Under the pieces are notes generated by a model. That model was not told the DNA's origin, did no database searches, and saw only the letters and a program-made list of their open reading frames with translations. A stretch of DNA of 63,908 nucleotides, filler included, from Intoshia linei (Eukaryota; Animalia; Orthonectida): assembly GCA_001642005.1 (NCBI GenBank). It is 4 parts of 4 records of this genome, joined end to end, with 100 filler letters (N's around TTAATTAATTAA, not from the genome) between each part and the next. Parts side by side here need not be neighbours in the genome. Positions count along the whole stretch, not along the records: positions 1 to 14,058 come from LWCA01000982.1; 3 more parts are not named here. One strand, written 5' to 3'. The position numbers and the translations under genes were made by a program. Positions 3,299 to 63,908 of the stretch are shown here, piece after piece; position 1 is the first letter of the stretch, and every line of letters starts with the position of its first letter.

Positions 3299-4270
3299 TC
3301 AATTCATTAAAAAGTACAATTTTTTATTAAACACACCCACTCGTTTAACTTGAACCAAAATTTGAATAAAATGATAACAATCGAATTGGTCCGGGACAAC
3401 AGTTTTAATCACAGGAAATAAATCATCAGCATTCCAATATTTAAATAAATACAGATATTTAGATTTAGAGATTTGTTTTAAATAATCAACGTCACCTACA
3501 ACTCTAACACGTTTATTTAGTTCACCAATAAGAACATTGCACAATTCCTGAGAAATGAGAACAGTATTAATTATTAAGCTTAAATCATCGTATTCCTCTT
3601 GTAAAATTGGTCGAATGTCCAATTTTGAATACATTGAAACACTAGAGCCAGATTTAATAACCGTAGTCTTTCTAATATTTAATTTTTGAATGTTAGACTC
3701 TAATGGAGAATTTAATTGCATTTCAAAAGAATCACAATTATTATAGTGTTTGTTATTTTCAAGTAATTCTAAAACACTAGAATCTAATGTAGGACTAGGT
3801 ATTGAACTATTATTAAAATTTAATTCTTTCGGCCAATTCATTTTTTTCTCAGGGGAAGCGGGGTGAGCATAATTGGGAGAGTCTTTTTCAAAAAGGCTCA
3901 TATTTATTTTTGGAGTAATTATTAAATTTTTATCATTATCATCATTGTTTGGTATTATTGATACATCTTTTAAAGTTTCGTCATAGATTGAATATGTTGA
4001 GTCGATTTGGAGGTATGATTGTTCCAATTTTTCCAATAGTTTAGTTTGTTTGGTTACACGTTGGAGGTTTTCTTTGAATGTGGTATTCATTGAGTTTATT
4101 TTGATTATGCTAGTATCCAATATATTACAGTATTTTTCAATTATTTCGTTCAATTCTTCCTTGTCTTCTAATGACAATTCTATGCAAGGTTTGTTTTTAG
4201 ATAGTTGTTGATGCTTTTTTAGGTTCAAGTCTATATTTATCAATTCATTCTTTAAATTTTCAAAATACAT
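3299..4270 (-). CDS. Intronless protein, probable Ska complex subunit (Ska3-like)
   Basis: Long open frame (first ATG at 4270) with N-terminal coiled coil, S/TP-rich middle (ITPK, DSPN, ASPEK, PSPT, NSPL) and C-terminal IRPILQEEYDDL...ISQELCNVLIGELNK...ILVQVKRV resembling the Ska winged-helix domain. The gene is likely real; the identity is inferred. Confidence 0.55.
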   Translation of the reverse strand: MYFENLKNELINIDLNLKKHQQLSKNKPCIELSLEDKEELNEIIEKYCNILDTSIIKINSMNTTFKENLQRVTKQTKLLEKLEQSYLQIDSTYSIYDETLKDVSIIPNNDDNDKNLIITPKINMSLFEKDSPNYAHPASPEKKMNWPKELNFNNSSIPSPTLDSSVLELLENNKHYNNCDSFEMQLNSPLESNIQKLNIRKTTVIKSGSSVSMYSKLDIRPILQEEYDDLSLIINTVLISQELCNVLIGELNKRVRVVGDVDYLKQISKSKYLYLFKYWNADDLFPVIKTVVPDQFDCYHFIQILVQVKRVGVFNKKLYFLMN

Positions 4271-4325
4271 TTTATTTAAATACACTTTAAAAATTAATTT
4301 ACATTACAAAGTTGAATTTTTATTA

Positions 4326-5175: not shown

Positions 5176-5190
5176 GTTTAATTCGATTAA

Positions 5191-5820
5191 TCCTAACTTA
5201 TATAATATGCGACGCGATTTTTGTTTGTGTGTGTGTCCCCTACTTTATTGAAATAACTAGCACTCTTAGAATTTTTTAAAGACCACATTTCAATTACAGT
5301 TTTTTACGGGACGTATAGTAAGATAAATTTTAATATCCCAATTTCACATCTTAAGGGTCAAAAACCCCTGTTGTCCCTCTTTTTGAAAATTAAACGAATT
5401 GAAGAATTTAAAACAATATATACGCTAATGCGGATTTTAAAATCATAAACATTATCATAAATTTAAATTAATTATATCTTTATGGCCAAAACCCCAAATT
5501 CCCTTCCTTTTTTTTTTGAAAACAGAGCTAGAATTTCAAAAAATTTACAGGTGGTAGAGTTGTATCATGTTAATACACATAAAAAATTTCAATCCGAATA
5601 AGTAACGACTTCACGGTCAAAAAAGCATTTTTGAAAGAAAAGAAAAAGCTCCAAAAAAGATAATATATTAAAAATTATTTTTCACCGGGAATGCGTAGAT
5701 TTCTGGGGTTGAACTTTTGTATTTATATCAACTGGAATAAGCTCTACAGAAAAATCTATTTTTTTTTTTAATTTTCTGACCGTTAATTATTTCACATTTT
5801 TTGTTTTAATAAAATATTTC
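5191..5820 (+). mobile_element. Non-autonomous Helitron, 3'-truncated copy
   Basis: Starts A|TCCTAACTTATATAATATG followed by a (GT)n tract; homologous to copies at 17257-17985 and 44419-45340. Confidence 0.7.
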
Positions 5821-6461
5821 GGAGCCTTTAATAATAATAAGCCTTTAAAGTTCTGAAATTCGTAGCATATTCAAATCTTTTCTGCAAAGTGCTAATACAA
5901 TTTCGTCTAATGGGAACTGCCACAAGTGATTTTAGAGTATAATGAAAGAAAGTGTTTCTAAGATTAAATAAATATAAAAGAGCAGGTGTATTTGTTTAAC
6001 CGATCAATATTTATTTTAACCATTATTTCCTCACTTTATATTTTTCACTGCAATTGCATCATTATTTTTTGAAAGCTAAAAGTTTCAAACAATTATTTGA
6101 TAATTCAATTCATTTTATAAATACAATCTTCATTGTATTCTTACACAAAGACTCGCTTCCCGATTTGTCAATTTCAAAACTTATTCAGTTAGTAATTTTA
6201 TTATAACATAAATACTTGCACAATTACCGTTACAGTAATTTTGTGTTGAGTTTAACTTATTATTTGTACTTTTCGACTCCCATAAACATAGTTGTCATTA
6301 TAATATTATGTTACAAATTATGAAAAATATTCATATAATAATGTACTTCCATTATTAATTATTTTGTATCGCTTTAGTGCAATTATTTTATATTAAAATA
6401 TTTTCGTTCATATTTTACTGACAGATAAATTGATTATCTTACGCTAGTACATTGTGTACGT

Positions 6462-9040
6462 TGTAGTATTTTGAATGGCGATGCACAAAATTAGAGTTGG
6501 GATCTTTTATTCAGTTAAACAAAAAATTACAATAAAATATGTATTGAATGATTTTCGTCGATAATATAATTATGAAATTATAATTTCATATATATATATA
6601 TAATTATATATAATTATATATAATATCTATTTCCCAAATTTGATTTACTCTATCCGTTAGGATTGTTTTTAATTTAGTGGGATGTAAGGTTCGTCCAGAT
6701 TTGTTAGTGTTACATTTGAAACATTTTGTTATGAAAGTTGTAGTGTCTCGCGTGTAGTTTGGCCAAAAATAGTTTAAACCTATGTTTTGAATAGTTTTGG
6801 TAATTCCCGTGTGAGTGAAGAATTTTGATTGATGTAAAAATTCTAGTAGATTTTTCTTTACACTGTTTGGAACAATTATTCGGTTTCATTGCTGTATACG
6901 AGGAGATGGTAATCTACAAAAACGGCACAACTTAAATAATTATAATTACATAGCAATGAAAATACAATACAATGAAATACCGAAACTACACTGATATAAC
7001 GCAATTTCACTTAACATTTGACCTATATTAGATTTTATAGAATTCATCCACTACAGACCTAAGTTAAAACTGAAATATTAAGATTAATTTTTTACCTAAA
7101 AACCATATTACAAAAAAATTAAAAATACACAATAATGTTTTGTAGTGAAAAATAGTTACGCTGTTAAAAAGTGTTAATTATTGGTTATTATAATTATTAG
7201 TCTCTATTTTGCAATATTCGCTGTTATTAACGCAGTGAAATTAGTTTTAATTATTACAAGCCGAAATTTGAAAATGTTAACTACGAAAATGAATTAATTA
7301 CAACAATCATCTTTTAATCTCAAGTTCTACTTGTGATCATATTAATACAATTATATTTTCATTGCTATGTAAGTCTAATTATTTAAGTTGTGTCGTTTTT
7401 GTCTGTGCCGTTTTTATCTACAATCTACTACTATCTGAATGTCTCTTTTATGTATTTTGTTAATGTGTTTTGCGTAAGGGTTGTTCTTTGATATTGGTAG
7501 CTTAGTTTCAATGTATTTCAATATTTCTTGGTAGTTAATTTGAGTGTCGAGTATTTTGAATTGATCCTGAACGAAATTAATATTGTTGATTATTTGGTCT
7601 TTCGTCAAAGGCTCTCTTGGTAGTTTGTCTTCCCAGGCTTGTGACGATGTCAAAATCAAAATTTTGGATACTGAATATCTCTGAATTGTCTGCTTGTCGG
7701 TAATTTTGTATCACGTATATTAACTAAGGGTTTATGATCAGTAATGACTGTGAATATTTTTCCCATTAGATGATATGCAAACTTATTTTCTGCCCATTTA
7801 ATTGCGTAAAGTTCTTTGTCTGTTGTTCAATTATTCAATTGAGCGGAGTTTTTACTGGCATATTGAATTATGTGGTCTTCTTGTTTGAGCACCACTCCAA
7901 CGCCATAATCATATGCATCTGTTTCAATAGTGTAACTTTTTAATAGATCTGGTATTGCTAAAATTGGTGATGTTATTTTACGTTTCAATGAAATAAATGA
8001 ATGTTGACATTCATCAGACCAATCAATCTTGACTGATTTTTTAGTAGAATGACAATCGGAGAGGAAATGTGGGTAAAATTAGGAATACATTTTCTTAGAT
8101 AGTTGCATGCACCCAGGAATCTCCTGACATGTTTGAATTTTTGGGTGCTTTAATAGCTAAAATAGCTACTTTGCGTGTATAATTTACTAATACAGAATTT
8201 GGTTTAATTGTGTGATCAAGATAGGTTAGATGTGATTTAGCGAATATACATTTATTTGGATTTACAGTTATATTGGCAGTAGATTTAAGTCCACAGTTTT
8301 GACAGTTTACATTTGATTGCGATGAAATTGATATTTGTTTCTTGAGAGAGAATTGTTTCGTTATTTTATGTATGTTTTCTTCGTTGTTGTACAGAGATAT
8401 AACACTTAATATGGAAGGATTCTTCAATTTTATTATATCCGTTAAAATGTTTTTTTGTGCAGTGGATAGCGATATGATCTCGTATTGATTCCTCTTCACT
8501 TGAAAAATTGCATTTGTTAGCTTGAATTCGAATTCTATGAACGTACTGATCTATGTCTTCGTTATTCAACATTCTCATGCATGACATTTCTATACGGGCA
8601 GAAATTGTGTTTATACTTGACCATGTACCAATTATATGTTTTATAACAGTTGCACTTAATAATTCCGCTTTGATATTTTTTGTTTCTATATTTAATATCG
8701 ATCTGGCTATAGATCCTGTTTGCTCGGAGTACCGTGGTTTCTGATATGTCATTTTTTTGCAATGTTGTTGAATGTTTTCCCAAAACTTTTTAAAATTTTT
8801 CAACCAGGAGTTAGCATCCATAATTAATTTTCTATCCTGGCTAAATAAATCGCCTGGTGGTCCGTAGAGTTTTGATAATAGATTTTTTGAAAATATTTTC
8901 CATCATTTATTTTTGCATATTTAAACTAATGTAATTTTGTAGTATTTTGAATGGCGATGCACAAAATTAGAGTTGGAATCTTTTATTCAGTTAAACAGAA
9001 AGTTACAATGTATTGAATGATTTTTGTCGATAATATAATT
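6462..9040 (-). mobile_element. Decayed Ty3/gypsy LTR retrotransposon
   Basis: Direct repeats 6462-6570 and 8938-9040 (tgtagtattttgaatggcgatgcacaaaattagag..., ending CA on the minus strand); gag-like ORF 8366-8821; RT tail (KCIFAKSHLTYLDH); RNase H (IETDAYDYGVGVVLKQ...KELYAIKWA...VITDHKPL); integrase H2C2 finger (H..HTGITKT..YFWP..KCFKC) at ~6700-6890; many stops, frameshifts and deletions. Confidence 0.85.
6918..7415. mobile_element. MITE inserted into gypsy pol
   Basis: ~50 bp TIRs (aaaaacggcacaacttaaataatt...ttacatagcaatgaaaat and its reverse complement); ATCTAC on both flanks; splits pol between DIQIVVD and YHLLVY. Confidence 0.75.
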
Positions 9041-9508
9041 TCGTATCAATAGTACTCGTTATTTTCCTCATTTATTGTAATCTAATATAATGTGATAAAA
9101 TAGTAATAAAGTAAATATGTAAATAAGTAATGTAGTAAAGTAATAAGAACTATGTTGTTATATTACTTACATTTTCCTCCGACTCAACCTCTTACATGTA
9201 AACAGGTGGCAACTGAGCGGATAGCAGATCAGTATGCTAGTACATTGTGTACGTTGTATCCCGACTTGACCTCTTACATGTAAACAGGATGTAAATGAGC
9301 GACCGGGACGCTCTTAGTGGGTTTTTAACTATTGAATTGTTTTCACAAGAACCAAAATATTTCCATTATAATTTTATTCAAATTTCCAGAATCATATTAT
9401 ATTAATCAAGTCAGTCCGATTGATACTCATTAATTTCACATATATTGTTCATATGAAATTATAAATATCACTTTAATTAACTGTTATTATGTTAATTAAC
9501 TAAATTCT

Positions 9509-9612
9509 TTCAATTATCTAGTTCCTATCAAGAATCCAGAAATTATTTTGTATACGTTTTTTTTTAAAATAAATGTTTAGTAACGTTCTTTGTATTGCAG
9601 GAATGCCCACCC
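9509..9612. repeat. Left direct repeat flanking the viral element
   Basis: About 90% identical by eye to 12119-12222. Confidence 0.85.
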
Positions 9613-11727
9613 CCACAAACTCGTGGAGAGGACGTGATCATAAGGACCCCAGTACCATTGTGTAAATTATCTAGAAACACCATTATTGAAATAAGTAGCA
9701 ATCTCATTTTGTGTAATAGCAGGTCTAAAAAGGCCCATTAGTTGTCTATAATGAAATTTTGTTGCCACAACTCTGATTTCAATTTCCATATCGAATCTGA
9801 TGCCATATGCTTGATAGAGTCTTGCTTGTATGTATGGTTCATTCAAGAGATCTAAAACAGGATTTATTCTGACAAAAGATGTAGAGGTAAGATTGCTGTT
9901 ATTTAGGGTTATAGTCTTTGAAAGAAAAAATCTTTCAAGAGATTTCGAGTAATCGTTTGCTCCATTCATATGAGGCGTCCATGACTGGTAAGTTTTGTGT
10001 TTTTATGTCAGTAATTTGATATGCTACTTCCACGAATTGCGTTAGGTTCTGACTGGTTGTACTAGGTTCTCCATCACCTATTTGTGTTTTATTAATTTGT
10101 CTGTCAGCAATATCGAGGGGAAAAAATTGACTATTGCTTAGAATCCCATAGGTAGGGTCACTAAGAAAGATATTGGAAAGATCCAATGGTGCTCCTGGTA
10201 TGTAGTTATTCATTATTTCGTCATAAAATAGTATTTCCAAATTGTTACTATCAATTAAGTACTGATATGTTTTCATTTCTATATCAAAAGACTTTTTTCC
10301 ATGGTAAAATAGTTCGAGCGAGGCTGTAACAAATAGTTCAGTATACAATTGGTTTTGGGACCAGTTTTTTGTCTCAGTGGTTTTTCGCCAATACATTATA
10401 AAGTGTTTTATCTTGCGTACAGGCATCGGCATCATCCAAAGTCCATTATTTCTAACAATACTTCTTTGCAAAAAATTTATCTCATTAAAATTTATCAAAG
10501 AAATGTTGTCTGTTTTATCAACAACTGTATATGTAATTCCCATAAGGGACATCTGCTTGACTATTGCTTTAGTAGCTGGAAGGTCGTCATTGTAAACTGC
10601 AATTATGTGGTAATCCCCATAGGTGGCCACTGGCCAGTGACAATATAGGAATTTTTAATGTATTGAAAGTTTTTCTAATAATAAGTGCATAAGCCAGTTA
10701 AGTAAAGTCCAGAAGGCATGCCTTGGCTTGTTCTATAGATAAGTATGTTTAAAACTATGTCCCCTTCACAACTATTTTTAGGTTGAAAAACGGCTCTTGC
10801 TATACTAAATCTTTATAATGAGTAAGAATTATTATACCATTCATTGATAAGATTAACTAATTCCATAAAAACTTCAAAAGGTATCGATCTGTCTGAAGAG
10901 GCGACATCTCCGCACAAATAGCTCACATCAGCACCATTAAATTGTAAATAAGTTGCCAAAGTCTCAACATCTCGTGCTTCAATGCTCAGGCCAATCTTAA
11001 CCGGACATGAGTTGTTCAGATACATTACATGTTGTACAAATGAACCAAACAAACTTTTCAAAACTAAGTTCATATCCAATGATAAAACACAGAATATTCT
11101 GGCTTTGTCCTTAAGTTCTTTTTTGAGTGACTTTTTCTTTGGTTACTTTCTCATCTTTCAACATGTCCATTATAAGGAAATCTGGAATCTTGCTAACAGA
11201 AATCAGTTCCCATATATCATTATAAGAAAAAGTCAACTCTGGCGATATTGTCATAGAGTCAAAATCAATCAAAGAATTTCTTGTATGCCCATTGATATCC
11301 TGTTGACGCGGTTGAAGAAATACATTTTATACCCATATTTTCATTGCCAAACACAGCTTTATTTAAGGTAAGGACCTTCTGTTTATTGTTTACGGGTTTG
11401 TAAATATTGTTTAACCACTGTTTTTCTTCATCAAAATAATTTGGATTTATTCCTATCACTAGTTTTAACGATTTCTGGAAGAGACGATACATAGGTGTTT
11501 GCCCATCAATCAATCCTTTCAATGGAGATGGAGAGTAGTCACATTCATCAGTGTAGAGTGGTGATTTTAAAATTTGACTTTTTTTATTTACGTAGAGATG
11601 GGGTTTTTCATGGGCTATGTATTCAACAGCCGTGGCCTCTGAACTAAATATAGGATCTATCATTCATAGAGATCATTCTGAATCTATTATTCAGGCATTA
11701 ATGACTGTATTTCTCCATTGTTCGTCA
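9613..11727 (-). other. Endogenous viral element: decayed Picornavirales-like RdRp followed by jelly-roll capsid (VP2-like) N-terminus
   Basis: Ordered picorna-like RdRp motifs across broken frames: KSQILKSPLY; KVLTLNKAVFG..ISSTASTGYQW (G); LKDEKV..KARIF (F); GDVASSDRS (A); GMPSG (B); TYGDY (C, decayed YGDD); GITYTVVDK (D); FLQR (E). Then capsid-like RLYQAYGIRFDMEIEIRVVATKFHYRQL. Confidence 0.9.
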
Positions 11728-12070
11728 TTTTTTATGTGTGTTAACAGGATACAACTGTACAACCTGTAAATTTTTTGAAATTCTAGGGAAAAAAAGGAAG
11801 TGTAATGTATGGTTTGGCCCTGAAGATATAATTTTTTTAAATTTTCCAACTCGTTTGATTTTCAAAAAGGGGGACAACAAGGGTTTTTGACCGGTAAAAT
11901 GTGAAATTAGGAGGTTGAAATTTATCTTAATATACGTTCCGAAAAAAACTGTAATTGAAATGTGGTCTTTAAAAAGTTATAAGACGGGTAGTTATTTAAA
12001 TAAAGCTTAACATACACACACACACACACTAACAAACAAAAATCGCGTAGCCTTTTATATAAGTAATGAT
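11728..12070 (-). mobile_element. Helitron 5' fragment abutting the viral element
   Basis: Reverse complement of 5191-5590 / 44419-44850, including the (CA)n tract and 5' terminus. Confidence 0.7.
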
Positions 12071-12118
12071 TTTGTGGAAGAGATTTATAATTATTATTTT
12101 AATTTAGAATCTATTCAA

Positions 12119-12222
12119 TTCAATTATCTGATTCCTAGCAAGAATCCAGACATTATTTTGTATACGTTTTTTTTTTTAAATAAATGTTTGGAACGTTCTT
12201 TGTATTGCAGGGATGTCCACCC
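12119..12222. repeat. Right direct repeat flanking the viral element
   Basis: About 90% identical by eye to 9509-9612. Confidence 0.85.
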
Positions 12223-12605
12223 AACACTTGACCGAAAATGGATATTTGAAAAATCTATAATGATTAAACTGACGAAATAGGGACGTACATACATTTAATA
12301 TGCAACCTTAAAATCGCATAGACTCTCAAATAGACGTAAATACATAAGGAACTAACTTATTTCAACTAAGTATATTATTACAAATTAATTTTTATTTTCT
12401 ATTATTTTTGGGAATTTAAAAAATATCTATAATTTATTAGTCATAGTATCAGATGAGCTGGTACTCGAAAATAATTTCTAGACCCCTTAGGGGTCCCAGT
12501 ATCCCAATTTGGGAACCGCTGCGCTAGAGTCTACTAGTAGTAGAAAATGGACGTTGTTTTTATTTTTTTTTTTTAAATTTTTTTCAGGACCAATTATTCC
12601 GTTAA

Positions 12606-13643
12606 CCCTTTCACTGTCTGATGCAATTTTATATACTATCATCACACGTCTGGAATTTATGTATTAATTTAAACTTGTATTATTTTTAAATTACCTATGT
12701 AAAAATGTATGAAAATAAAAGAATAAAGTTCTTCAAAATTATGATGTGTATATCAGGCATTCTCAATCCTTTTTCGTTGTTGACCCCTAAGATGATATTA
12801 CATAAAACCTGTGGACCCCCAAAAAAATTAATAATAATGACTGTAGTGATAATCACTATAGTGTAATATAAAATAAACATAAAGTTAGTGTATAATTAAT
12901 ATTAAATTCCTTGAACACAATCTTGTATAACCTTATATCAGTTTCTTCATACAGGTAATATTGCTACAATGACAATTTTTAATGAATTATTACATTGGGG
13001 TGAAACGAATGATGGTCAAAAGACATGGAGTACTCTATTTTTGCGAGATGATAAGTTTGATGAAATATTAATATTTACCTTTAATATGTCAATGTTCCCA
13101 AAATGAATCATGTTTTTTGGGTATTGTTTACTACATAATACTATATCAGATAAATAAAAAGTCTATATTATCTATCTTCCCTGTGAAGAATTAATATTTT
13201 ATATTGCGTGGTAAATGTTTCATAGAATCATGAATATTAACTGATTTTTTGTCTTATTTTCAATTTGAAATTTAAAGCTTTTTTTATGACTAGAAACTTG
13301 ACTGGGTCATAAATTTTAATAAAATAATTAAATAAAACCGCTGCTCCAAAAAATAGAACAATGGAGGTTACCCATTAAGTTTTTAAACTTGTTAATAATT
13401 TAATTTACAGTTAGTTATTATTTAATTAAAGTTACAATTAATATCAAAGAATTTACTTTTACATGATTTTCACGTTTTATATTAGTATTTCTGAGCCTTT
13501 ATGTTTTAAAAACGACTTTATGTTACTGAAAATGTCTATAATATGTAATAAATGTATATAATTTTCATAGACCCCCAAAAAAGTGCTGTGGACCCGTTGA
13601 TAATGGCTGGTGTATATCATAGAATACACAAATAGTGAAAGGG
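12606..13643. mobile_element. piggyBac-type MITE
   Basis: TTAA|CCCTTTCACT ... AGTGAAAGGG|TTAA. Confidence 0.8.
12754..13609. mobile_element. hAT MITE nested in the piggyBac MITE
   Basis: TIRs caggcattctcaa / ttgataatggctg with perfect 8-bp TSD GTGTATAT; an internal segment recurs inverted at ~50430-50496. Confidence 0.8.
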
Positions 13644-14058
13644 TTAAAGAGGAATTAGCATGTATTAACCTTTATGCACTTACAGCAACAGCATCAGAAT
13701 AATCTTCTTTTTTTAATTTTCGGATCGTTAATTATTTCACATTTTTTGTTTTAATAAAATATTTCGAAAAAAAAATATAAATACTAAAATATTTTTTTGA
13801 TAGTGAAGTCGTCACTTATTTTGATTGAAATTTTCTGTGTGTTCTGTGTAAATTTTAGAGGCATAATATCATGTTGCTTACATGTTTTCTAAACAAGGAT
13901 AGAACATAGGACAAGACAAGATAGGACAAGATCCAAAAGTTTTCGTTTTGATTAGCAGACATAAAATCCAAAATCTTAACAAAATTCAAAAAGTTTATAA
14001 GGGTAAGAGCACAGAATATCAAATTATTATTTAAATATGAATATTAAGAGTATTACTT

Positions 14059-14478: not shown

Positions 14479-17400
14479 TTACACTGAATTCAATAATATA
14501 TCAATATCTTCATAAGGAATCCAACCAACCAGGGGAGTTAGTCCAGGTTCATAGATTGTTTTTTCATGGTAAATTAGATAACCATCCATCTAAAATGATA
14601 TAAAGATTAAAATAAAACCATGAAAGTTAACAAGATATTAAAATTATTTGAAGAATATTGCCAAATTTTCATAAAGCATCTAATCAGTATTTGGTTAGAA
14701 TCTAATAACCATATTTAAATGTTTTTATAATGAAATGAGTATGTAAATATAAACTATTTCTAAAATTAGCCGAATATTAGATATATCACATTTATGCCAT
14801 CCCCTCTATCAATAGATAAAACTTTCGGGCCCGTTTGGGTTTAATTAGATAAAATTTATATAATATATTGTGTATATATAATTATAGATGCGTAACATCA
14901 ACCCCATTAATGATGACATTAAAATGTTTAATACATAATGGTTGACCATACTCATCAAAATTTTGACATATTTATTGAAGATAAATCTGCAATAACTAAT
15001 ATATTTTGTATTTACATTCTGTAAGTAGGAGTAGACTTTTTACACGTTTCAAACAATGAACATAAAAATAAACCACCATTTTTCAATTTTTTTAGGTTGG
15101 CTCAATTAGTCCTCATAAAATATAAATAAAATTAAAATTGTAAGGCAAAAAATTAAGAAATTTGATTAATCAATTTAAATTTAAATCAATTGACATAATA
15201 AATAAGTATTTAATAATTAACCCAAAAAGTTGTAAATCTATTGGCAATTAAATTTCAGCACTATTAATTTGTATAAATGATTACATTATTCAATAAAAAT
15301 GTATCCGAATTATTTTTTTTCCATTCACTACAGTCCCAGTTAGACATTCGATATCTTTGTAAATAGATAAATCGTCTCTAAAAAAATAAATTAATAAATT
15401 AAAATTTTTTAACCCATTTTATTAAAGTCTTAAACTTCATTATATTGGTTGATAATTTTTAGATGCATGGGTACAATGGTATGATCCAGAATCTAAAGGT
15501 TCGGATTACTGTTTTACAAAATATACATGCCAAATTTCGATACCATACTAATAATATAAAAATAAATATTTTCACATTCAAAATGAGAAAATAGGTTTTT
15601 ATAATTTTATTTTTTCTGGAATTTATGCTATTTATGACAATTTTTTAATGAGTGTTTTTACTTTATTGTTAAGATTATACAACTCATTCTGTCTAATAAA
15701 TTATTTCTTTAATTTTATTTTTTCTGGAATTTATGCTATTTATGACAATTTTTAGGATTGGACGTTTTTACTTTACTTTTAATATTATATACACATTCTG
15801 TCTAATAAATTAAAAAAATGGGATCATAATTATTTTCAAAATTCTTTATGCAAATGTTAACAAACAAAAAATAAGATGAAATAATTCACTTTAAAGTAAA
15901 TAGTAATGTGATATGACAGTTCCACCTAAAACAAGTTTGGAAACCACTCCTTTAAACGATTGGTAATATGTGAAATCCAACCGGTCCATACTAAAACAAG
16001 CTTGGGAACCACTGATTTAATGTGTTCATAATATTGAATAGTAACATGTTTGGTAATTGTGATAAAAATGTTTTTTTTTTATGTATTTATTATTATATAA
16101 TTTATTTTTTTGGTAGAATTAAAAAAGTCCGACCTTAACAGAGCTAAGTACTATTTGTTCAAAGTACATAACAGTGGAACTATTGATTTAATAAAACAAA
16201 AAATTTTGCAGAGTAACTGACAAAAAAATTAATTATAGCAGAAGATTAATAAAAAGTATCATATTGTGTTATATATTGTACATATATACACACATACATA
16301 TATTGTGCAAAATAATTATAAAATAATAAATACATCATTTTCAGGTAAATTTGGAAATTGATTGTACATTTCTTCCATTTTGCTTTTTAGCCAAAAAAAT
16401 CGCATATCTGTCTAAAATTGAAAATAAATAAATTAATAATAACACTACAATGTAGTGTAATAGTTCCCAATTCAAAATCTGTACGGACCTCAAATTCTAA
16501 ATTTTTTGGGACCCAAAGAAAACAAGAAATATGAGAAAAGCTTTTAAAATAGTAATAAAAATAAAAAAAAATAATCAGTAAATAATAAGTACATGTAAAT
16601 TGTAGATTTTTCTAGTCTTTTTTTTAATAATTTTATCAAATTATTTTTGTCATACAAGCCACCAGTTTCAGTTATGAATCCTAAGGTTCTGGCATTCTAA
16701 TTGGGAATCAATGCACTACATGTATATTCATCTGAAGATAAGTTAAACGAATACATATTGATTTTAAATTGAGTGAAAATTATCAAATCAATAACGAATC
16801 GATATCAGTAAAATATTTTCAAGGACAACACAAAAAAGCTGTTTGTATCCACTACAAGATTGTCACATGAGTCTAAAATCGTTATTAGATCGGGAACTAT
16901 GTACTAAAACAAGAAATTGAACAAATTATTTTACGAAAAAATGAATTTTAAAATTTTAAATGTAAATTATAACAAGTAAAATAATTTTATTTACCGAGTT
17001 ATTGCAAAGTTCTAAACTATTCCAACAAATGGCATCCAAAACGTAATATTTATTGATTTCTTTACAGTATATGGTGTCTATTGCAGTATCTATGTTTTAT
17101 TAAAAGTTACAGTATACAAAATCCTTTTTTCAAGTAAAATTATATGAAACTTACAAATGTAAGACTTTCGCAGGATTATATAATAATTTATTTTCAGAAA
17201 AGAAACAAACATTTTAAAAATTAATCAAATGTAACTAATTATTAATGTATAAGGAACTAGGTTGACTGTTATGTACTACGTACAAACAGCACCTAGCTCT
17301 GACGATGGTACATTTTTATTATACTAAAAAAATAAATTCAAATAATAATAATAATAACAAAGTTGTGTTACTTTTAATAATTCGTTGTTGTAGTTTTAAT

Positions 17401-20107
17401 TTAAATTTTAAACGAAATGCTTTGAAAATCAAAATAAAAAATTGAGTAGCAATGAAAAAAATTGCGAAGGAATTTATTATATATATTTTCACCCATATTT
17501 CTTTATTGGAAATGTGTTGACATTTTTTTTTGAAATTGTAGGATAAATATTTACATTTTCAATTTTTATTTTAATCGAAATATTTGAAAAATATTGGTTG
17601 AATATATTAAAAGTATTTTTCACCCGGGAATGCTTAGATTTGTAGAATTGAAATATTGTATTTATATCAACTGGAATAAGTCCTATCAGAATAATCTTTT
17701 TTTTTAATTTTTGGACAGTTAATTATTTCACATTTTTTGTTTTAATAAAATATTTCGGAAAAAAAATATATGAATACTAAAATGCTTTTTTGACCGTGAA
17801 GTCGTCACTTAATTCAGATTGAAATTTTTTTAAATTCTAGGGCTATTTTCATAAAAAAAATAATTTGTGGTTTTAACCCTGAAGAAATAATTTTTTTTAA
17901 ATTTATAAAATTTTAATACTGGTAGTTATTGAAATAAAGTAGAACACACACACCAACATTGCGTAGCATATTATATAAGTAAGGATGTTAAATCCTCAAT
18001 ATTTGTTTGTATGTGATATATTAGTAATATTCAATAAATTTAGAATTTTTTAAATGACCATTAAATACATATAATTGATTCAATACAAACTTTTAAATGA
18101 ACCTTTTAGATAACAATACATAAACAAAACAAACAATTACGTTTCTGAGTAATTGTTAGTGAACTTCCACCTGGTAAAATGGAATCAAAATTGTCAATTT
18201 TTTTACCATATTTTGAATAAGCGCGGGTTTTATTCTAAAATTTTAAATCATTCATAAAAATTAATGCTATTTATACATTTATTTCTAAATTTCATGCATT
18301 TTTAGCCAATAATTGAAATAATTCACTAACAATCATATCAACCTTTCCTTAAAAAAATATTCATTAATTTATTACGTTATTCGAAATTAGGAGATTTCTG
18401 TATCCTTTTGGGACAGGTAAAATATACCAATTTTCCATTAAATCTTCTGGAATTTCATTAAGTTCTTCAGCAAGCATTATCTGTACAATTTTAAATTATC
18501 AATACAATTAAATTACATACCTTACAATTACTTCTTTTTCCTGGTTTTTCTTCTTTGTCTTCAATGTGTATGTCCCTTAAAATCATTACGGCAGCATTGC
18601 GCTTTCTATAAAGTAAATTAAAAATAAAAACATTTCCACCATCACATTCCATTCAACCAATGTATAATATACACCAGTGATTCCCAAATGGGGGGCTTGG
18701 CCCCACATGTGGTGCCTTCAGAGTCTGAGGGGCCCGCAGATATCAGAAAAATTTTAAAATTAAATTTAGAGTTTTTAACATTAATTTGATATTTAATTAA
18801 TATATCTTGAAATTCGGATTAATTTTTGATTCTAATAAATGTAAATATTATTAAACCTTACGAGACAATAGCACGTATATATACAAAAAAGAACAATCAT
18901 AAATGTACAATTGTTTGTATACTAGGGTGTCAACTATATTAAAGAATAATTTATAACGAAAATAAAATAAAATATATATTTTTTATTAATTAAAGATAAC
19001 ATTTTTTTAATGGTTGTTATAATAGTATAATAAACATATTTACTATTTTGTACTAACTGATCTTTTCTAAAAATATTTGTATACTGTTATGAGGGTCGCA
19101 ATATATTTTTTTGGGAACCACTGCTAAACACAGTATACTGACTAAACCAAATGGTGGGCACTTGCGTTTATGTAAGAGAAATGACTCTTTAAAAATTAAA
19201 TACAGTATCAAGTTTATACGATTGACATTATAAAAATTAAATTAAGAAAGTTAATTGAATCCAATTTTAGGAAATGGAAAAAAATACATTTAATTCAATT
19301 GATAAAAAATAAAAAATATTGGCGCACTATCAAAAAATTGTAAAAAAATAAACTTCATAACTAAACCAAATATAGTAAATTGAATTGGATAAAAAATATT
19401 CTATGGTGTTCACACCAGAGAATATTTTTATTTTTTTGTAATATGGTTTGTAGCTATAATATGGTATTTTAATATTTCAGTTTTAACTTGGGTTTGTAGT
19501 CTAAATTAAATGAACTAGTTAATGAATTATTTAATTTAAACTTAAACAAAATAAATACGATCATGTGATTTACGATATTGTGAACGGACACGAAAAATAT
19601 TAGACGAAAATAGTGTAAAAATAGTAAATTGTAAATATAAGATTCAAATAGCTGTTGATAATTCGTAGATCAAAAATAGGCTCTTAAAATATTTTTGGTA
19701 AATTATGTGTTGTCATATAGTCCATATCTAGCATCTATGGTTTTGGACTTGACACGATAAATTTGAGAAACAAAATAGTCGATATCCAAAAATGTATTTT
19801 TTTTAAATTGTCAATTAGGAAAAATTTCTTGGAAACTCGGTACGGTAGGTTCGGCAGTGAAACATGTCTACAAGTATATTATATAGTGATACAGATACTA
19901 ATAAAGTTATATTCCATTATATAATTGTACCATTTTGATTTCTCGTGATTACAGTTTCTCAAAGTGAAATTTGAAAAACTTGTTTTTATAAATTATAAAT
20001 TAAAACAAATATTACTTTTTACATTCTAATATTCTTTGTTGTCGTCTACATTCTTGAGATTTAAGTAGTTTGGTATCGTTTTTATACAATGCTGTAAATT
20101 TACTCAT
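14479..20107 (-). CDS. SNUPN: Snurportin-1 (about 8 exons)
   Basis: Spliced exons give MSKFTALYKND..SQECRRQQRILECKK (IBB-like), IMLAEELNEIPEDLMENWYILPVPKGYR, KTRAYSKYG..SILPGG, IDTIYCKEINKYYVLDAICW, DMRFFWLKSK, RRFIYLQRY, DGYLIYHEKTIYEPGLTPLVGW; GT-AG boundaries. Confidence 0.92.
14770..15551 (+). pseudogene. Possible decayed SRCR-domain gene fragments, antisense to SNUPN
   Basis: AG/GT-bounded segments give TFGPVW|MRNI..TLKCLIHN|GWLN*..|DAWVQWYD, paralleling the SRCR GPIW..C.H.GW..DAGV.C order, with a frameshift and stops. Confidence 0.3.
17257..17985 (-). mobile_element. Non-autonomous Helitron with both termini, in a SNUPN intron
   Basis: 5' A|TCCTTACTTATATAATATG; 3' hairpin ctaggtgctgtttgtac-gta-gtacataacagtcaacCTAG|T; inserted between A and T with no TSD. 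Confidence 0.85.
18675..19123. mobile_element. hAT MITE
   Basis: TIRs cagtgattcccaaa / tttgggaaccactg; degraded 8-bp TSD (atatacac / ctaaacac). Confidence 0.7.
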
Positions 20108-20222: not shown

Positions 20223-22358
20223 CAGTAGAATCTCTTTAATTTAAAGTCAATTTTATTAAAATACAGTCAAATCTGTATAATCTGAACACCATTAAAATAA
20301 TGCTATTTATTCCCAGACTAAATTAACTCTTTCATTGCAATTTTTGATAAACCACGATTCCAGGTCATTGACCGATTTGCAACATTGTTGAAATGTTATA
20401 ATTCTAAAATATAGATTAAATAGTTAAATTTAAGCAGCTACTTATCGTTTTTAGGTATGTTGATTTGGTACATTCATCTTCCTTTATTTTCATCCTCTCA
20501 TTTTCACTGAATTGTTTTATGAATATATCATCAAATTCAGAAATTTCTTCATATATATTTTCAAATATAATATCGATTTCGTAGGATGATTCAATATTAG
20601 AATTTTTTATTGCATTATTTCAACAATTGGAAATCATCGTATTCGACCTCTCTCCAAGCCTGATTTATAGATAGCAGGGCGTCATAAACGTCTATTTTTT
20701 TTATTGAATCAAAATGTGTTTTAGAATCAATATCATGTATGTTATTAAGTTCAAACAATATCTTATTTTTCGTAATGAATTTATATTTATCCTTGAATGT
20801 TGTTATTATACTTTGATCTAAGGGTTGCAATTTTGACGTAGTATTTTTTGGATAAAAAAGGAAATCTATGTTGGACAATTCTATTCCATGAAAATGCACT
20901 GGTGCGTTATCAAGTGTTAACAAAATTTTTCTATTTTTATTTTTGTATTTAAATTAAGTAACCAATTGTTGCATATAACAGCAGTCATCCAAGCATTTCT
21001 AGAGTGAGAATATTCTACATTTAACTTAAAGGTTTTTTGTTTTCCATTAAAGCATCTTGGATTTTTAGTTTTACCAATAACCAATGGTGCTAATTTTTCT
21101 CTAGACATACTGGCACAAAATAAAATGGTTAACCTATCTTTATATTGTTTATAGCTTAAGTTAGTGTCATTATGTGCTACTAAACTTTTATTTCCGGTGC
21201 CTTTATACAGTAAACCAGTTTCATCATAATTAAATGTATTGTCAGAATTATATTTTTTTAATTTGTTTTTGTAAATAGGTTTAAAATTATCAATCAAACT
21301 TTCGGGTACGAAGCCTGACTCTCCTATCAAAAATTTTGATTTTATATTATATCTATTTGTAAAGGAATTCAGCCATCCGGTTGAGGCACAAAAATTAAAT
21401 ATATTAGCAAATTCTGCTAATTTCAAGGCCATTATTTTGAGATTATCGCCAGATATGGAATGATACATATGACGTCTACTAACAAACCATTCAAATAAAG
21501 TGCTGTCAATTGCATTGGTTTTCGAAAGTTTGCGTTGTCTTTTATTTCTGTTATCATCAATTTGTAAAAGTTTTTCCTTATTTGATAAGATTCTATTTAT
21601 TGTATCTATAATTATGAATATTATAAAAAGCTTAAATATATTTACCTAAAGAAATTTTAAATTTAATTGATATTTCCCGCTGTGAACAATGTGGATTCTA
21701 ATCGTAGAAACAAATAATATCTTTTTTTTCCTTTAAATTTAAGTCTACTCGTTTTTTTTATTGTTCATACTTACAATATAAAAAATAAAAAATCACGCTA
21801 TCAAATAATAATATATTTGAATTGTCTTGGTATTTAAAAATATTTTTAGTTCAGTGTTCAGATCAACAATGTTCAAATTAAAATTTTCTCATTGTATAGT
21901 AACCGTAAGAAAATATATTATAAATTGTTCAAAGTCGCAATGTTCGAATTATACAATGTTCAAATTATGCAGATTTGACTGTACTCTTTATTTTAAATAT
22001 TCACATGTTTATTTTTATATGAATTTTGAAAATATCTGAATTATTTTATTTACATTTTATATTATTTGTTAATTTTATTACTACGAAATTTTTTTATTTA
22101 AAATTTAGTGACTCATAGAATGAATATTACTTATGATTTATTTAGTTAATCTTATATATAGAGAATTAAATCGTATCGGTGTTCGATATTCCATATATAA
22201 TGATTTAGCTGCTGTTAAAAGTTATTTGGAATACATTTATATTTATTTATTTTTATTAGTCATAAAAACGTCAAATTAAAAATTGTAAATAATCATTGTA
22301 GTTGAAGAATTCTTTGTATTGAATCAAAATTGTACTTTAGATTAAGGAGATTCTACTG
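20223..22358. mobile_element. pogo-type MITE hosting a nested Tigger element
   Basis: TA-flanked TIRs cagtagaatctc / gagattctactg. Confidence 0.75.
20264..21981 (-). mobile_element. Near full-length Tigger/pogo transposon with defective transposase
   Basis: TA-flanked TIRs cagtcaaatctgtataatctgaaca / tgttcaaattatgcagatttgactg; CENP-B HTH (ASTGWLNSF), NYDETGL, DRLTILFC, AWMT, LDNAPVH, QPLDQSII; frameshifts; 40-nt GT-AG intron at ~21606-21645. Confidence 0.92.
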
Positions 22359-26610: not shown

Positions 26611-26853
26611 TAATGATCGCTCATTATCTGTATGTATTGTTATCAATTTTGAATAAAATTAATATATTGTTACTTTGCATCGACAATTTTGTAATTAACC
26701 ATCCGCGATAGTATCCCAATAATTGAAAACATGGTGAGATAAATTAGGATTTACTACAAATAGAGACGAAATTTTTACCAAGTTTAAAAAATATTATTAA
26801 TACGGTATTATGTATATGAAATTTACTATTGTTTATAATTTATTATTTTATAT

Positions 26854-27470
26854 TTACATTGTCAGAGTATGTTCAAGATTTTAGATATTGTAGCAAGGGC
26901 ATTTAAATAAATTTAACGTAGCATTTCTGAAACTTTTTCCCATCAGGCAAAAGACAATAAAATTTGTAGCTGAATTGAGAATAACCAAACTAAAATACAT
27001 AAAAATTAAATTTGCATATTTAAAAAATGTAACATCAAGGTATATAAATTGTACTTGTTGGCAATAAGCATAAAAATAATGTAGTTTTCTCCGTTTTCAT
27101 TATAAAGAGCATGTACCACATTGTTTATGGTAGCTGGAGTAACACACAAAATAAACAAGCATATTATTGTTTATGTTATTTTATTTATCCTTGAATTTCT
27201 TTTATAGTGTTTGCAACTTGTTGATTTAGAATTGGTATTCATTTTTGAATGGTTTTTTCTCAATGTGATTATAACTGATAATTGATTATGTTGAAATGTG
27301 ATATTACAAGGTTTATTATTAATATTGACAGCCACTTGTATCGTCAATATCAAAACGATAAACAAGAAATCTGACATTGTTATAGCTCTAAGTAGATAAA
27401 ATATTTTTGATTTTCTAAAAAATTTTAGCATAATAAAAATGCTGACAGCATTTCCAATAATTCAAAAATT
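26854..27470 (-). pseudogene. Deleted duplicate of the GPCR at 30593-32919
   Basis: High nucleotide similarity; FQHNQ joined directly to LSVIITLRKNH; premature stop (KIT*); retains the last intron; 5' end truncated. Confidence 0.9.
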
Positions 27471-27879
27471 TGCGATAATACAACAGTCTCGAAAAACTGT
27501 AATAGAAATATGGAATTTTTAAAACTAGACTCCTCTTACTTTCTTAAATAGACTGGAACAAGCAAATAAACAAACGGACGTACATTTTTAACTACATTAA
27601 TGTATTTTACTTTATATAAGTAAAAATATATACCAAAACTAACTATATTTAAAATTTTTATTTTATTTCGAAGGCTTCACAGCAACAGGCGACACTACAG
27701 TACAGTATTCTCTCTAAATATTGTTACTGTCTCAATAATTTTGTAAATTTGTTCAAATTTTATCAACATATTGACATATATGTGAGTAATTTAAATAATT
27801 TGCGTAATAACAATAATGTATAAAAAAATATAATCACTATATTTGAATAAAGTTCACTTTAACTTATAAATATAAAAAA

Positions 27880-30800
27880 ATGTCACGTGAAAATAATAAA
27901 TCTAGCCATCGAGTCGGTCCATTACGTCAATCAAACAAGACCCACAAAACTGGAAAGCACAGATCAAAATCACAAATAAAAGTCGGTGGAAAACAAACCT
28001 CGTCAATAAAAGTGAATAAATTTAAAAAACAATCCAAAAATTTGAAAAATATAAAAACATTAAAACGAATAGCAAAAAGTTATAAATTATTGGAAAACTA
28101 TAATAAAAATGGTTTCAGGAACGGTAAAATGATTAATCCACACCTAGTATGTGTAATTTCTCTGAATGCTGGAGATTCGTTTTTATGTGTACAAAAAATG
28201 TTGAATTTTAAAACATTGGTTCAAAATGAAAGAAATTTTTATATGGCTGATTTTAATTCATTTAAAAGAAAGTCTGGCATGTTTATTTGTACAGATTCTC
28301 GAAATTTAATGGATACACTTGATAAAACTAAAATATCGGATACTGTTTTGTTTGTTGTTGATGAAATTGATCGTATTAGTCAAAATAATCAATGTCTCTT
28401 GTCCATTATTTTTGCATGTGGTGTTAAGAATATTGTTTGGGCTTTTAAAGTATTTTATTTTAGTATATTTTTAATTAATTTTAAATTTAGAATGAAAAAT
28501 TATCCACTAGGGAAATTCGAAAATCTTGTTTATTTAAATGGTTACTTTTTTAAATTCAATGTGTAGCTGTTGTGTGTGTAAATAGGTCAATATTAAACCG
28601 AGAATTGGTGGAATTGGATAAATTTAAAATTTTTTATTATTTTTCTAAATACTTTTTTAATTTATATAGCAATTTTTGATCTTGGCTCCCGTTCTACCTT
28701 GACACCACTGATTAATTTTGGTTAAAATTAATCGAAAGCGTTTACCAAATACTCATTGTAGGCTCTATTGATACATTTTGAATGTTGACTTTCGCAATTA
28801 ATTTTTCCATTTAGGATCACTACAAACAAAATATTTAGTATTCATTCTAATGAACAATGTCAAATTTTATTACGTTCAATATTCAATAAAATTTGTTCAA
28901 ATAAAACTCATTTCGAAAACGATCGTGGATTTTTATTTATTGAGCATTATGAAATTTTGCATGATGTAATTATTAATTATTATTTTGAAGTTTTAAATTA
29001 CTATATTGTATATTTAAATTTTAATTCGTGTTTAGTCTATCAAAGTGTGTGGTTTTGTTAAAGGCAATACTATTGATGCAAATTCTTTAATGTATATTCC
29101 AAATGTTGGGACATTTCAAATTAATAAAATTGAATCTATTGTCAATTCTGAAAAAACTAAATCCTTGTTTGATAAATTAGTTTATTTTTAGTTATATTTT
29201 TTTATTAATTATTTTAGGAAAACCATGTCGCATCCATTCCTTCTTTAATACAACAATCTTTACCAAACCATGAATATTCAAGAATCGAAATTGAAGACGA
29301 TCAAGATGAAAGTGAGATGAAAAAAATCAGTAACTTTTTAATGATTTAAGCTAGGGTGAGATTTATCTTTTTACAAATCTCTCGTATAGTCTATAACTAT
29401 CAAATTTATGATAAGTTTCCCAATTTTGTTATATTAAAAAAGGCAAACATTCAGTTGTGCGCTATTCATTTAAGCGATATAATCATCGATTTTGTTAATT
29501 TTACTTCAACTTAATTAATCATATTTATTTTTGTGATTTCTTTAATGACAATGACCAAAATTTTGTAGTGTTTTTAAGGGAATTTTTAGGGAAGTTGAAG
29601 GTAATAGTATTTTTTTACCCAATTTTTAAAGATTTTATAGATAATTTAGAGACCAAAATTTTTTAGGGTTTTAAGAAAAGTTTTTTTCACCCAATTTATA
29701 TGATTTTGAAGTTAATTTGGAACCAAAATTTTGTAGAGTATTTAATGGAAGTTTTTTTTACCCAATTTTTAAAGATTTAGAACACAATTGTGTAGGGTTT
29801 ATAAGGTAAAATTATTTTTTTTATTCAATTATTAAAGATTTTGAAGTTAATTTGGAACCAAAATTTTGAATATTTTAATTTTAAATACAAAAAAATAAAT
29901 AAATTTTTTTTGTATAATAAAGTTTTTTATTTTGGATGCAAATTTGCATTAGTTTTGTTTTATTGTCAAAATTTTGTAGGGTTTAAAGGGAAGTTTTTTT
30001 TGCCCAATTTTAAAAATTTTAATTAACAATTATTATTGTAAATTAAATTATTATTAGATATTGAGAAATTTTCCAACATTTAAATAATTATTATTAATTA
30101 CTTATTAATAAATAAAAATATTAGGATGATCATGATTGTAGGCGCGGGCCATATACCCCTAGCCTCCACAGCCCTGCCACACATAACCTTAAAAATTATC
30201 AGATTAACTGATATAAAATATTTCAATTGATTATGTTAAGATTTTATATGAATAGATAACATCTATAAATTTTATTCCATTCTTTATAATTGACGTTTTA
30301 TTTGTAGAAAATTTTGAAAACAGACACAAACAATTGAATATCCCGAAAGGATCAAATGAATATCAAGCCAGTTGGTTTGAATACGAAAATGAAAATTCTG
30401 ATGGAATTGAATCCGACGATTCCCAATATAGCAATCAAGCAGTAATTTATATTAATTATCTAAAATAGTTAGCAGTCTCAAAATTATTATCCCCCATGTT
30501 GATAACATGGTGGGATAAATTATGTTTACCACAGATTGAGAAGAAACTTTTAACATTTTTATAAATATTTCTGATAATTTATTATTTTATATTCACATTT
30601 TCAGAGTATGTTGAAGAGTTTGGGTTTTGTAGCAATGGCATTTAAATACCTTTAACATAGCATTTCTAAAACTTTTTCCCATCAGGCAAAAGACAATAAA
30701 ATTTGTAGCTGAATTGAGAATAACCAAACTAAAATACATAAACATTAAATATGTATATTTAAAATGTATAATATAAAAAGTACTTGTTGGCAATAAGCAT

Positions 30801-35901: not shown

Positions 35902-36832
35902 CAGTACGGTGCAAATGTTTTAAGCATGTATATTCAAATTTTCTAATTAAACAATAAATTATCTTAAATATTGACATTATCAATAGATAAAAATTCTGCT
36001 TATTCAAAATTTTATTCTGATCAATATCCATATTATATGTCAGAAGACCAAAAAATTTTAAATTCAATTCAAAATATATCACTCCTACCGTTAAGTTTTC
36101 AGCTTCAATTATGTAATGTGCTGGTATTCGATATAATGGTAGCAGATTTATCATTAAAGTGAATGGTAACATGAATTCTGCTGAATACCAAAGGGTAATG
36201 TTGGAAGCTCTACCAATTCTGTACACTCATGGATATATGTTACAACAAGATGGGGCTAGCTGTCATACTTCTCGAAGCACTACTCTACTTTTTGAAACGC
36301 AATCTATTGATTTGTTACCAAATTGGCCGGCAAAAAGTCCTGATCTCAATATAATTGAACATTACTGGGCAGACCTGAAGGCAAGGTTTAAATTAAGGGC
36401 TTCAAAAACAATAGACGAGCTTTGGGTTGTTACTAAAGAAGAGTTTTATAAAATTGAAGATATCCGAATTAAAAATTTGTATGATTCGTTGTCTAATAGG
36501 ATTGGCTTTGTTATTAAGAGCAAGGACGGACCTACAAAATATTACATCAATTATGTATGTTTGTTTTTTTAATTTAATCAACTTTAAATTTATTTTTAAA
36601 AGGTTTTAAAATAGGTGCTCAAAACATATGCACGACCATATTTTTTTTAAAAATGTATTTATATCTGTAAGATTTGATTTTGACAACCGATTCATAAAAT
36701 TTAAATTGGATATTGATCAGCGTTATATTAATAATCAAACATTTTTTCTATTTGTGATGTCTATATTTAAGATACTTTATTGTTAAATTAGAAAATTTGG
36801 ATATACATGTTTAAAACATTTGCACGGTACTG
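35902..36832 (+). mobile_element. Internally deleted Tc1 element
   Basis: TA-flanked TIRs of roughly 100 bp (cagtacggtgcaaatgtttt...); ORF 36159-36572 with QQDGASCHTS..WPAKSPDLNIIEHYW; appears nested in a hAT MITE (~35687-37011). Confidence 0.9.
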
Positions 36833-60284: not shown

Positions 60285-60354
60285 CTTATAGATTCAATAA
60301 TAGAGTTGGTAAATTTATTGTTGGTTACTTGTTAATACTTTTTAAAAATAATAT

Positions 60355-62854: not shown

Positions 62855-63880
62855 TTAATACTTGGTTATATTTCCTCCTGTTGCTTCTAACAATTCGATT
62901 AATCTTGAGGGAAATGATTCTACCAATTTTTTTATTTCCTGTATGTCAAGGGCATCCCATATACATTTAATTTCTGCCTTAATTCCATATTATTATGATA
63001 CACTTTAGTTCCAGGGTATAGTCGACGAACCATTATAGCCCAAAGGTTCTCAATGGGATTGCAATCAGGACTGTATGGTGGCCAATCAAGAACTTGTATG
63101 TTATTTTCACGTATATACCCCATACTTTTTTTGAAACATGAATCCTGGCGTTGTCCTGCATCATCATAAAATCGTTTTGATGAAAAGGAAGATAGGATTT
63201 GGTCAATATGTCTATATATACATCTGAATTTACATTTTGGTCGGTTAAATAAATAGATGTGGTACCGTTTAATCATATTCCTGCCCATACCACAATGCTT
63301 TTTGAGAATAGTTTTTTTCCGAAAAATTTTCAAATCTCATTGTGTTTTGTCCAATATTTTCGACATCCATCCGGACCGTCGAGTAAAAATATCTTTTCGT
63401 CTAAGAATGTTACCTGTTCCAAGTTCAATTTTTTTGTTGTTAATTTTAATAGCGTTTTCTTTGCCCATTTTAATCTATTATTTTTATTAAGTGGTGACAA
63501 TAATGGTGCTTTAAAATATGGGACATATTTGTAACCATTTCTAGCTAAAAATTTAATTTTTTTTGATAATATAATTATATATATTACCTGTACACTGTAT
63601 CTTTTGAGACATTGAGATTCAAATCAGCTATTAAACGTGCTGCAGTAGGAGAATCATCTTTTATAAGTTCAAGGTAGATATGTCTTTTCGTTCTATCATC
63701 CAATAATTGAGGTCTTCCACCTCCACGAGTGTAAGTCTTACTTCTCAGAAGGTAATTTTTTATGCAGTTATATGATCTCCCTAATCTATCTGCAATTTGG
63801 CCAGTAGGCACCTTTTTTTCGGTAAGAGATTGTATTACACCTGGTTCAAACTCAGATAATAAGTTACCACGTTTTGGCAT
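62855..63880 (-). mobile_element. Tc3-like transposase pseudogene
   Basis: MPKRGNLLSEFE..IADRLGRSYNCIKNYL..GRPQLLD; FLDEKIFLLDGPDG; WPPYSPDCNPIENLW; intron at ~63541-63587; frameshifts and deletion. Confidence 0.88.
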
Positions 63881-63908
63881 TTTAAAAATAAGTTTCTATG
63901 ATAGTAAA

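Follow-up and report, generated by a model that had tools for sequence, protein, structure and literature searches.

A decayed Picornavirales genome piece in a genome assembly of the orthonectid Intoshia linei

Identity and extent of the element

Positions 9613-11726 of the window, by which we mean the whole 63,908-nucleotide stretch of Intoshia linei DNA analyzed here, carry on the minus strand a decayed piece of a Picornavirales genome made up of its polymerase and one half of the first jelly roll of the capsid. We hold with high confidence that this element is the decayed fragment of a positive-strand Picornavirales RNA residing in I. linei DNA. It is ca. 2.1 kb long and broken, with the polymerase followed by the start of the capsid.

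Twenty-six open frames were scanned against Pfam, and RdRP_1 scored above its curated cut-off in 2 of them, both within the element: the stop-free pieces 9938-10654 (E = 7e-10) and 10816-11142 (E = 2e-8). The polymerase domain on which the original prediction depended is therefore present. As a tblastn query, we used the nearest intact relative, a viral polyprotein of 2453 aa (P0006). It aligned in six colinear pieces running from 11660 to 9619 (35-69% identity, residues 1151-1822, combined E = 9e-163) with scores of 34 to 169 bits, versus a top score of 24.3 bits in a shuffled-stretch control (n = 50). With a profile built from five relatives, no other viral pieces were found in the window.

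Motifs G, F, A, B, C, D, and E follow one another as in the relatives and match the motifs of the latter, as the original prediction had claimed. Its account of the damage (stops, frameshifts, a deletion in motif B, and a YGDY in motif C) was also borne out. There are six in-frame stops, three of them within the poorly aligned first 66 bases, and five frameshifts, near 11285, 11110, 10690, 10630, and 9956. Motif B, read from the sequence against the relatives, has lost ca. 5-6 codons including the conserved Asn, and motif C reads YGDY. Because motifs B and C are broken, no working polymerase is encoded any more. In the direction of the viral sense, the pieces are as follows.

11661..11726, minus strand: probable end of the 3C-like protease region, with three stops and weak homology, recognized by eye against the T-x-E-W stretch of the relatives and lying outside the tblastn and HMM coverage
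11289..11660, minus strand: N-terminal part of the polymerase with motif G; 40% to P0006 1151-1273, profile E = 2e-31
11114..11284, minus strand: polymerase fingers with the first half of motif F, a frameshift on each side; 39% to P0006 1278-1334
10690..11103, minus strand: second half of motif F, motif A, and the start of motif B, with a stop at 10813-10815 and the motif B deletion at its end; 58% to P0006 1334-1465, RdRP_1 E = 3e-9 when an X replaces the stop
10631..10689, minus strand: helix after motif B, in a different frame; part of the 10706-10629 piece, which is 58% identical to P0006 1466-1491 across 26 aa
9959..10630, minus strand: motifs C (YGDY), D, and E, thumb, and linker to the capsid, stop-free; 35% to P0006 1489-1712, RdRP_1 E = 7e-10
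9613..9954, minus strand: first half of a VP2-type jelly-roll capsid domain, with a stop at 9667-9669 and cut at 9613; 69% to P0006 1714-1822

The I. linei annotation has a hypothetical gene, A3Q56_06002, covering part of 9959..10630; its contig of 14058 bases corresponds to the window from position 1 up to the first N gap.

Relatives and classification of the virus

When 1.84 billion representatives were searched exhaustively by HMMER, with the 239-aa piece as the query, 57 matches had E values of up to 0.001. The top three non-self matches were proteins of 2436-2625 aa, aligned over the polymerase palm and everything that follows it in the piece. A word-index protein search with the polymerase piece and an IMG/VR search with a single piece returned no match; an alignment scan found two loci in IMG/VR and none in metagenome contigs. 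One IMG/VR contig of the same virus clade (L001:1-3985) is ca. 41% identical to the polymerase core of the element and has one in-frame stop at 2509-2511.

[quoted passage not shown] Their layout is a single polyprotein with helicase, 3C-like protease, polymerase, and then capsid. Since the element, which itself carries the polymerase, is without the helicase and most of the protease, the full helicase-protease-polymerase module is seen in relatives only (P0006, P0008, P0010, and P0014). P0006 and P0007 resemble the element in having the polymerase and then the capsid, colinear over its whole length; of these two, only P0006 gave a protease match. Over 449 polymerase columns, P0006 is 45% identical to the element. 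Given that P0006 and P0007 are intact and well diverged, the donor of the element was another species. A 184-aa protein on a 946-base NCBI contig (P0063) is 74% identical to the P0006 capsid and could be a virus fragment or another endogenous viral element (EVE).

The polymerase tree, a quick search of 19 rows, 18 of them references picked from the matches, grouped the element with P0006, P0007, and Cryptolin (SH-aLRT, 94) within a clade of 8 rows (SH-aLRT, 96). The trees of single pieces agree with it, with weak support. Both the comparison with viral proteins and the polymerase tree that had been proposed as checks speak for the viral reading, the former with its six colinear pieces and the latter with this placement. 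The named relatives (Cryptolin, Beihai sesarmid crab virus 2, and Sphaeripse virus), which come from several marine invertebrates, fall in the same 8-row clade and have the same gene order as the element, to which two of them are 27-49% identical per piece.

In the modeled capsid of Beihai sesarmid crab virus 2, the capsid piece corresponds to residues 55-142 within the first jelly roll. The VP2-like capsid start of the original prediction is upheld by this mapping to a VP2-type jelly roll and by the 69% identity to P0006 1714-1822. The capsid HMM search suggested along with it was answered only in part: the piece (9954-9619) had no Pfam match of its own, and the Rhv capsid family appeared among its Atlas neighbors with a score of 0.97, a weak result with recognition under the threshold of the tool. 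The mean pLDDT in the modeled Beihai sesarmid crab virus 2 capsid region is 53, two jelly-roll domains being confident and the third of low confidence; in the relative P0018, a CRPV_capsid match lies at the place of this third jelly roll. Folds that match the model are those of the large subunits of comoviruses and of VP2 from hepatitis A virus, enteroviruses, and dicistroviruses, with no caliciviral fold among its 47 listed fold matches. This predicted capsid fold is at odds with the "calicivirus" label.

Four family assignments were compared with these features. For Caliciviridae, in which a single major capsid protein is divided into S and P domains, one piece had as its best PDB sequence match 1khv (E = 7e-4), which we take to be a calicivirus polymerase. 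Against this family stand the fold matches just listed and the tree in PMC9241645, the text layout of which sets Sphaeripse virus 1 beside Beihai sesarmid crab virus 2 and apart from Caliciviridae. The same source describes Sphaeripse virus 1 as a member of Picornavirales with no family assigned, from a trematode dataset with the association unconfirmed. The Caliciviridae tree of the preprint 10.1101/2025.06.19.660416 includes Cryptolin, Beihai sesarmid crab virus 2, Wenzhou picorna-like virus 38, and Rudphi virus 1, and published trees place the named relatives with Wenzhou picorna-like virus 38. Dicistroviridae have two ORFs and an intergenic IRES; here, the polymerase runs into the capsid, colinear with single-ORF relatives, and 6700-14000 gave no Rfam match. 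In Picornaviridae and Iflaviridae, the capsid lies upstream of the replication genes, whereas that of the element follows the polymerase. From Marnaviridae, represented by "Marnaviridae sp." as the single named reference, the element is separated by a branch of support 100. The tested features of these families (one reference in the case of Marnaviridae) were not found, which makes the virus an unclassified member of Picornavirales. It can be assigned to an invertebrate clade of this order, likewise unclassified, with a single polyprotein, nonstructural part first and capsid second.

Probable second and third loci in I. linei

A polymerase end and capsid, 44% identical to P0006, make up A3Q56_08327 (P0009), an I. 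linei gene model of 620 aa that lies on a contig of 2537 bases. It covers more of the capsid than the element does and is known as a gene model only. In a 12-row tree, the element, A3Q56_08327, and P0006 form a clade (support, 96/94). At the polymerase end, 52 of 156 residues are identical between the element and A3Q56_08327 (33%), versus 47% between the latter and P0006. We rejected the reading of both I. linei sequences as copies of one insertion: the path between them amounts to 1.68 substitutions per site, versus a nucleotide decay of ca. 0.03-0.04 per site. As this divergence is far beyond postintegration decay, A3Q56_08327 was probably captured separately and probably derives from another virus of the same subclade. 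A viral-family RdRP with a near-complete domain is reported for the I. linei proteome in PMC6396948, in a figure that shows the family by color alone. Neither A3Q56_06002 nor A3Q56_08327 has an RdRP Pfam match, so the RdRP in that figure is probably a third locus.

The orthonectid plasmodium grows inside host tissue. The virus might then have infected the nemertean host, with its RNA reaching the parasite germ cells via the plasmodium; the element would be just as real, and the two readings compete only on whose virus it was. The host of P0006 is not on record, and the origin of the named relatives in several marine invertebrates would suit such a source. We nonetheless regard a nemertean virus as rather unlikely, in that two apparently separate captures from one subclade fit replication in the orthonectid lineage and the relatives include the one from a trematode dataset, itself of unconfirmed association.

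Edges and genomic neighborhood

The original prediction set the element among host transposons, and this is what the window displays: an LTR-retrotransposon relic on one side, a high-copy repeat of no established class on the other, and transposase relics elsewhere in the window. The features next to the element are as follows.

6440..9300, minus strand: scrambled, decayed Ty3/Gypsy-like LTR-retrotransposon relic, sharing its strand with the viral sense and ca. 0.3-3 kb from the element
9484..9612, no strand assigned: left copy of a low-copy 130-bp repeat, 86% to 12091-12222, ending exactly at the viral edge; depth of ca. 17 in its bin in sequencing run X1
11727..12072, minus strand: first 345 bp of a high-copy noncoding repeat (unit of ca. 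0.9 kb, with a GT microsatellite), cut at the viral edge
12091..12222, no strand assigned: right copy of the 130-bp repeat, the similarity breaking off at the very base where that of the left copy does

The LTR relic has RT_RNaseH_2 at 7740-8027 (E = 4e-21), an Integrase_H2C2 zinc-finger domain at ca. 6700-6870 (E = 1e-13), and an internal duplication (6461-6571 and 8937-9040); its part at 8549-9300 had no Pfam match and was assigned by eye. The high-copy repeat occurs at 5189-5823, 11727-12072, 13693-13842, 17331-17989, and 44438-45356, with the GT microsatellite near one end, and its start presumably resembles nonautonomous Helitrons. Its copies at 5189, 17986, and 44438 continue past the point at which the viral edge cuts it, and its summed depth is in the thousands. 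A third variant of the 130-bp repeat, found in run X1, diverges at the same base as both window copies.

The edges at 9613 and 11727 are where the flanking repeats end and begin, respectively. Since both are repeat boundaries, the original ends of the integration have probably been lost, and the present junctions are probably not the original integration points. Other arrangements of the repeats were considered. We rejected a single Helitron-like copy whose two ends would enclose the element and whose 3' end would be the 130-bp repeat, because fuller copies of the high-copy repeat end in unrelated sequence and the 130-bp repeat is low-copy and folds no better than shuffles (z = -0.1 and -0.7). 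As LTRs or as a target-site duplication, the 130-bp repeats are unsupported, the two copies being 86% alike and the variant in X1 diverging at the same base.

The contig of the element has repeats in common with two of the three other contigs of the stretch, and all four have a GC content of 25-28%. The transposase relics, Pogo/Tc5-like (DDE_1) and Tc1/mariner-like (DDE_3), lie at 20615-21645, 2166-2639, 36117-36572, and 62932-63895. Among the genes of the window is Ndc80 (58238-60293), the exon 59547-60293 of which is 100% identical to I. linei A3Q56_06133; this gene model (721 aa) carries PF01951 besides Ndc80 and possibly represents two genes fused by annotation. There is also a rhodopsin-family GPCR exon at 30759-31370, part of which is duplicated at 26827-27282 (91% identity), as well as a Tsr1 G-like domain at 27847-28566, slightly under the Pfam cut-off. 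A frame of 334 codons (3299-4303) had only weak Pfam matches, and its C-terminal part presumably resembles kinetochore SKA proteins.

Sequencing runs, alleles, and decay

Six sequencing runs were considered, and >60% of sampled words were present in two of them, X1 and X2, from two studies. Contigs of four runs were aligned to 7000-13000, so that the depths and junctions given here rest on assembled contigs. X1 yielded a single contig of 2805 bases over 8937-11756, with 24 differing letters and 15 gap letters relative to the window, and X2 yielded contigs at 9542-9886, 9857-9987, and 9958-11492. Over the part that they jointly cover, X1 and X2 have the same listed differences from the window, and hence at least two alleles exist; two short indels further set both apart from the window copy. 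X1 may have come from the sample that was assembled, in which case a single independent study, that of X2, would be left. X3 and X5 had little or no cover of the element and are not informative on its absence, and no empty-site joint was found among the 15 of 27 joints that were listed. The element is inherited, being present with common lesions in the window and in two runs of two studies.

Differences between X1 and the window were found at 20 of 2114 sites inside the element versus 17 of ca. 2240 in the flank (Fisher P = 0.51), those inside being distributed as 9, 4, and 7 over the three codon positions. None of the six stops is hit by the 24 listed differences of X1, and motif C is also untouched (one contig gap letter is unlisted). 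Scored singly, 17 of the allelic changes are nonsynonymous and 3 are synonymous (neutral expectation, 27% synonymous; P = 0.32), a pattern that fits neutral change, unlike that of two live virus strains. From two to three stops in 2022 aligned bases, we estimated a decay since integration of ca. 0.03-0.04 substitutions per site (range, 0.008 to 0.11). The integration is roughly several times as old as the allele split, an age that is relative only and gives no absolute date.

These values bear on whether the stop-free piece of 239 codons has been kept for a function, as a host gene (A3Q56_06002) or as a small-RNA template. In favor of this are the spliced gene model and the position of the element amid transposon relics of a single strand, an arrangement also seen for EVEs in the insect piRNA clusters described in PMC12922265. 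Against it, the intron of the model simply spans a frameshift, genes of the usual kind and transposases also occupy both strands of the window, the estimated decay would leave a stop-free stretch this long with a probability of 39%, and the allelic changes are mainly nonsynonymous. We therefore consider a retained function unlikely and keep to the reading of a neutrally decaying fossil.

The depth of the element was 15.8 in X1, versus 21 for the neighboring contig, and 19-24 in X2, versus 20-21 for the flank. It is single-copy-like in both studies, and the comparison of coverage with neighboring sequence, proposed as a check, gave flank-like depth. Of the two junctions at which DNA had been expected to cross, the left one was bridged in two of the four runs aligned, namely, the two that contain the stretch. 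The right one was reached, by 30 letters, in X1 only, one letter short of our bridging rule, and the long X2 contig ends at 11492, so that this half of the claim stands without a formal bridge. A contig that ends just past the right junction, as that of X1 does, is expected where it meets a high-copy repeat.

That live viral RNA or foreign DNA was misassembled into the scaffold is very improbable: the GC content of the element (34%) does exceed that of the window (26%), repeats, where assemblers err, stand at both ends, and the right junction is not formally bridged, but the left junction is crossed by independent contigs in two studies, the depth is flat, the breaks in catalytic motifs are common to the copies, and the differences lack the synonymous enrichment expected between live strains. 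The earlier argument that the decay speaks against contamination with live RNA is thereby supported. So is the germline integration of a probably undescribed virus, in view of the host context, the flank-like depth, the common neutral decay, and a donor diverged from P0006 and P0007.

Proposed origin and setting

Beyond the observed viral origin, gene order, host context, common breaks, and neutral drift of the alleles, a course of events can be proposed. The virus would have replicated in orthonectid germ-line cells, or its RNA would have reached them; the reverse transcriptase of a host LTR or LINE retrotransposon would have made cDNA, which would have been inserted into the patch of transposon relics; repeat insertions or deletions would then have trimmed both ends, with germ-line inheritance ever since. 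Copying into DNA by the reverse transcriptase of a host retrotransposon is likely, this origin being established for nonretroviral EVEs in insects and mice. Because both ends abut repeats and the element has no virus-retrotransposon joint, target-site duplication, or poly-A remnant, we can only infer the route.

Nonretroviral EVEs are a known class (PMC12922265). The NIRVS of arthropods are, like the element, decayed fragments of RNA viruses in host DNA beside relics of LTR retrotransposons; here, the host is an orthonectid and the donor belongs to Picornavirales. This order is rare among the RdRps in eukaryote DNA, with 8 sequences in the set of 1222 in PMC12548735, the text and two searched supplements of which do not name Intoshia or these accessions. 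In the literature searched, a scope that leaves out most subscription papers and the I. linei genome paper, we found no endogenous viral element described in Intoshia or in orthonectids.

A bolder reading, which we offer as a speculation with little weight behind it, is that orthonectids have a persistent Picornavirales lineage of their own, captured at least twice by the I. linei germ line and still circulating in P0006-like form, and that its fossils in patches of transposon relics act as templates for antisense small RNAs. If true, such viruses and small-RNA fossils would amount to a heritable antiviral memory in one of the most reduced animal genomes.

The fossil itself ties to a definite animal germ line an unclassified clade of Picornavirales that comes mostly from pooled metatranscriptomes with uncertain hosts, and it concerns a phylum, Orthonectida, for which our searches found no described virus. 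Well-supported cases are added to a virus order that rarely leaves fossils, and two I. linei "hypothetical proteins" in NCBI and UniProt are viral in origin.
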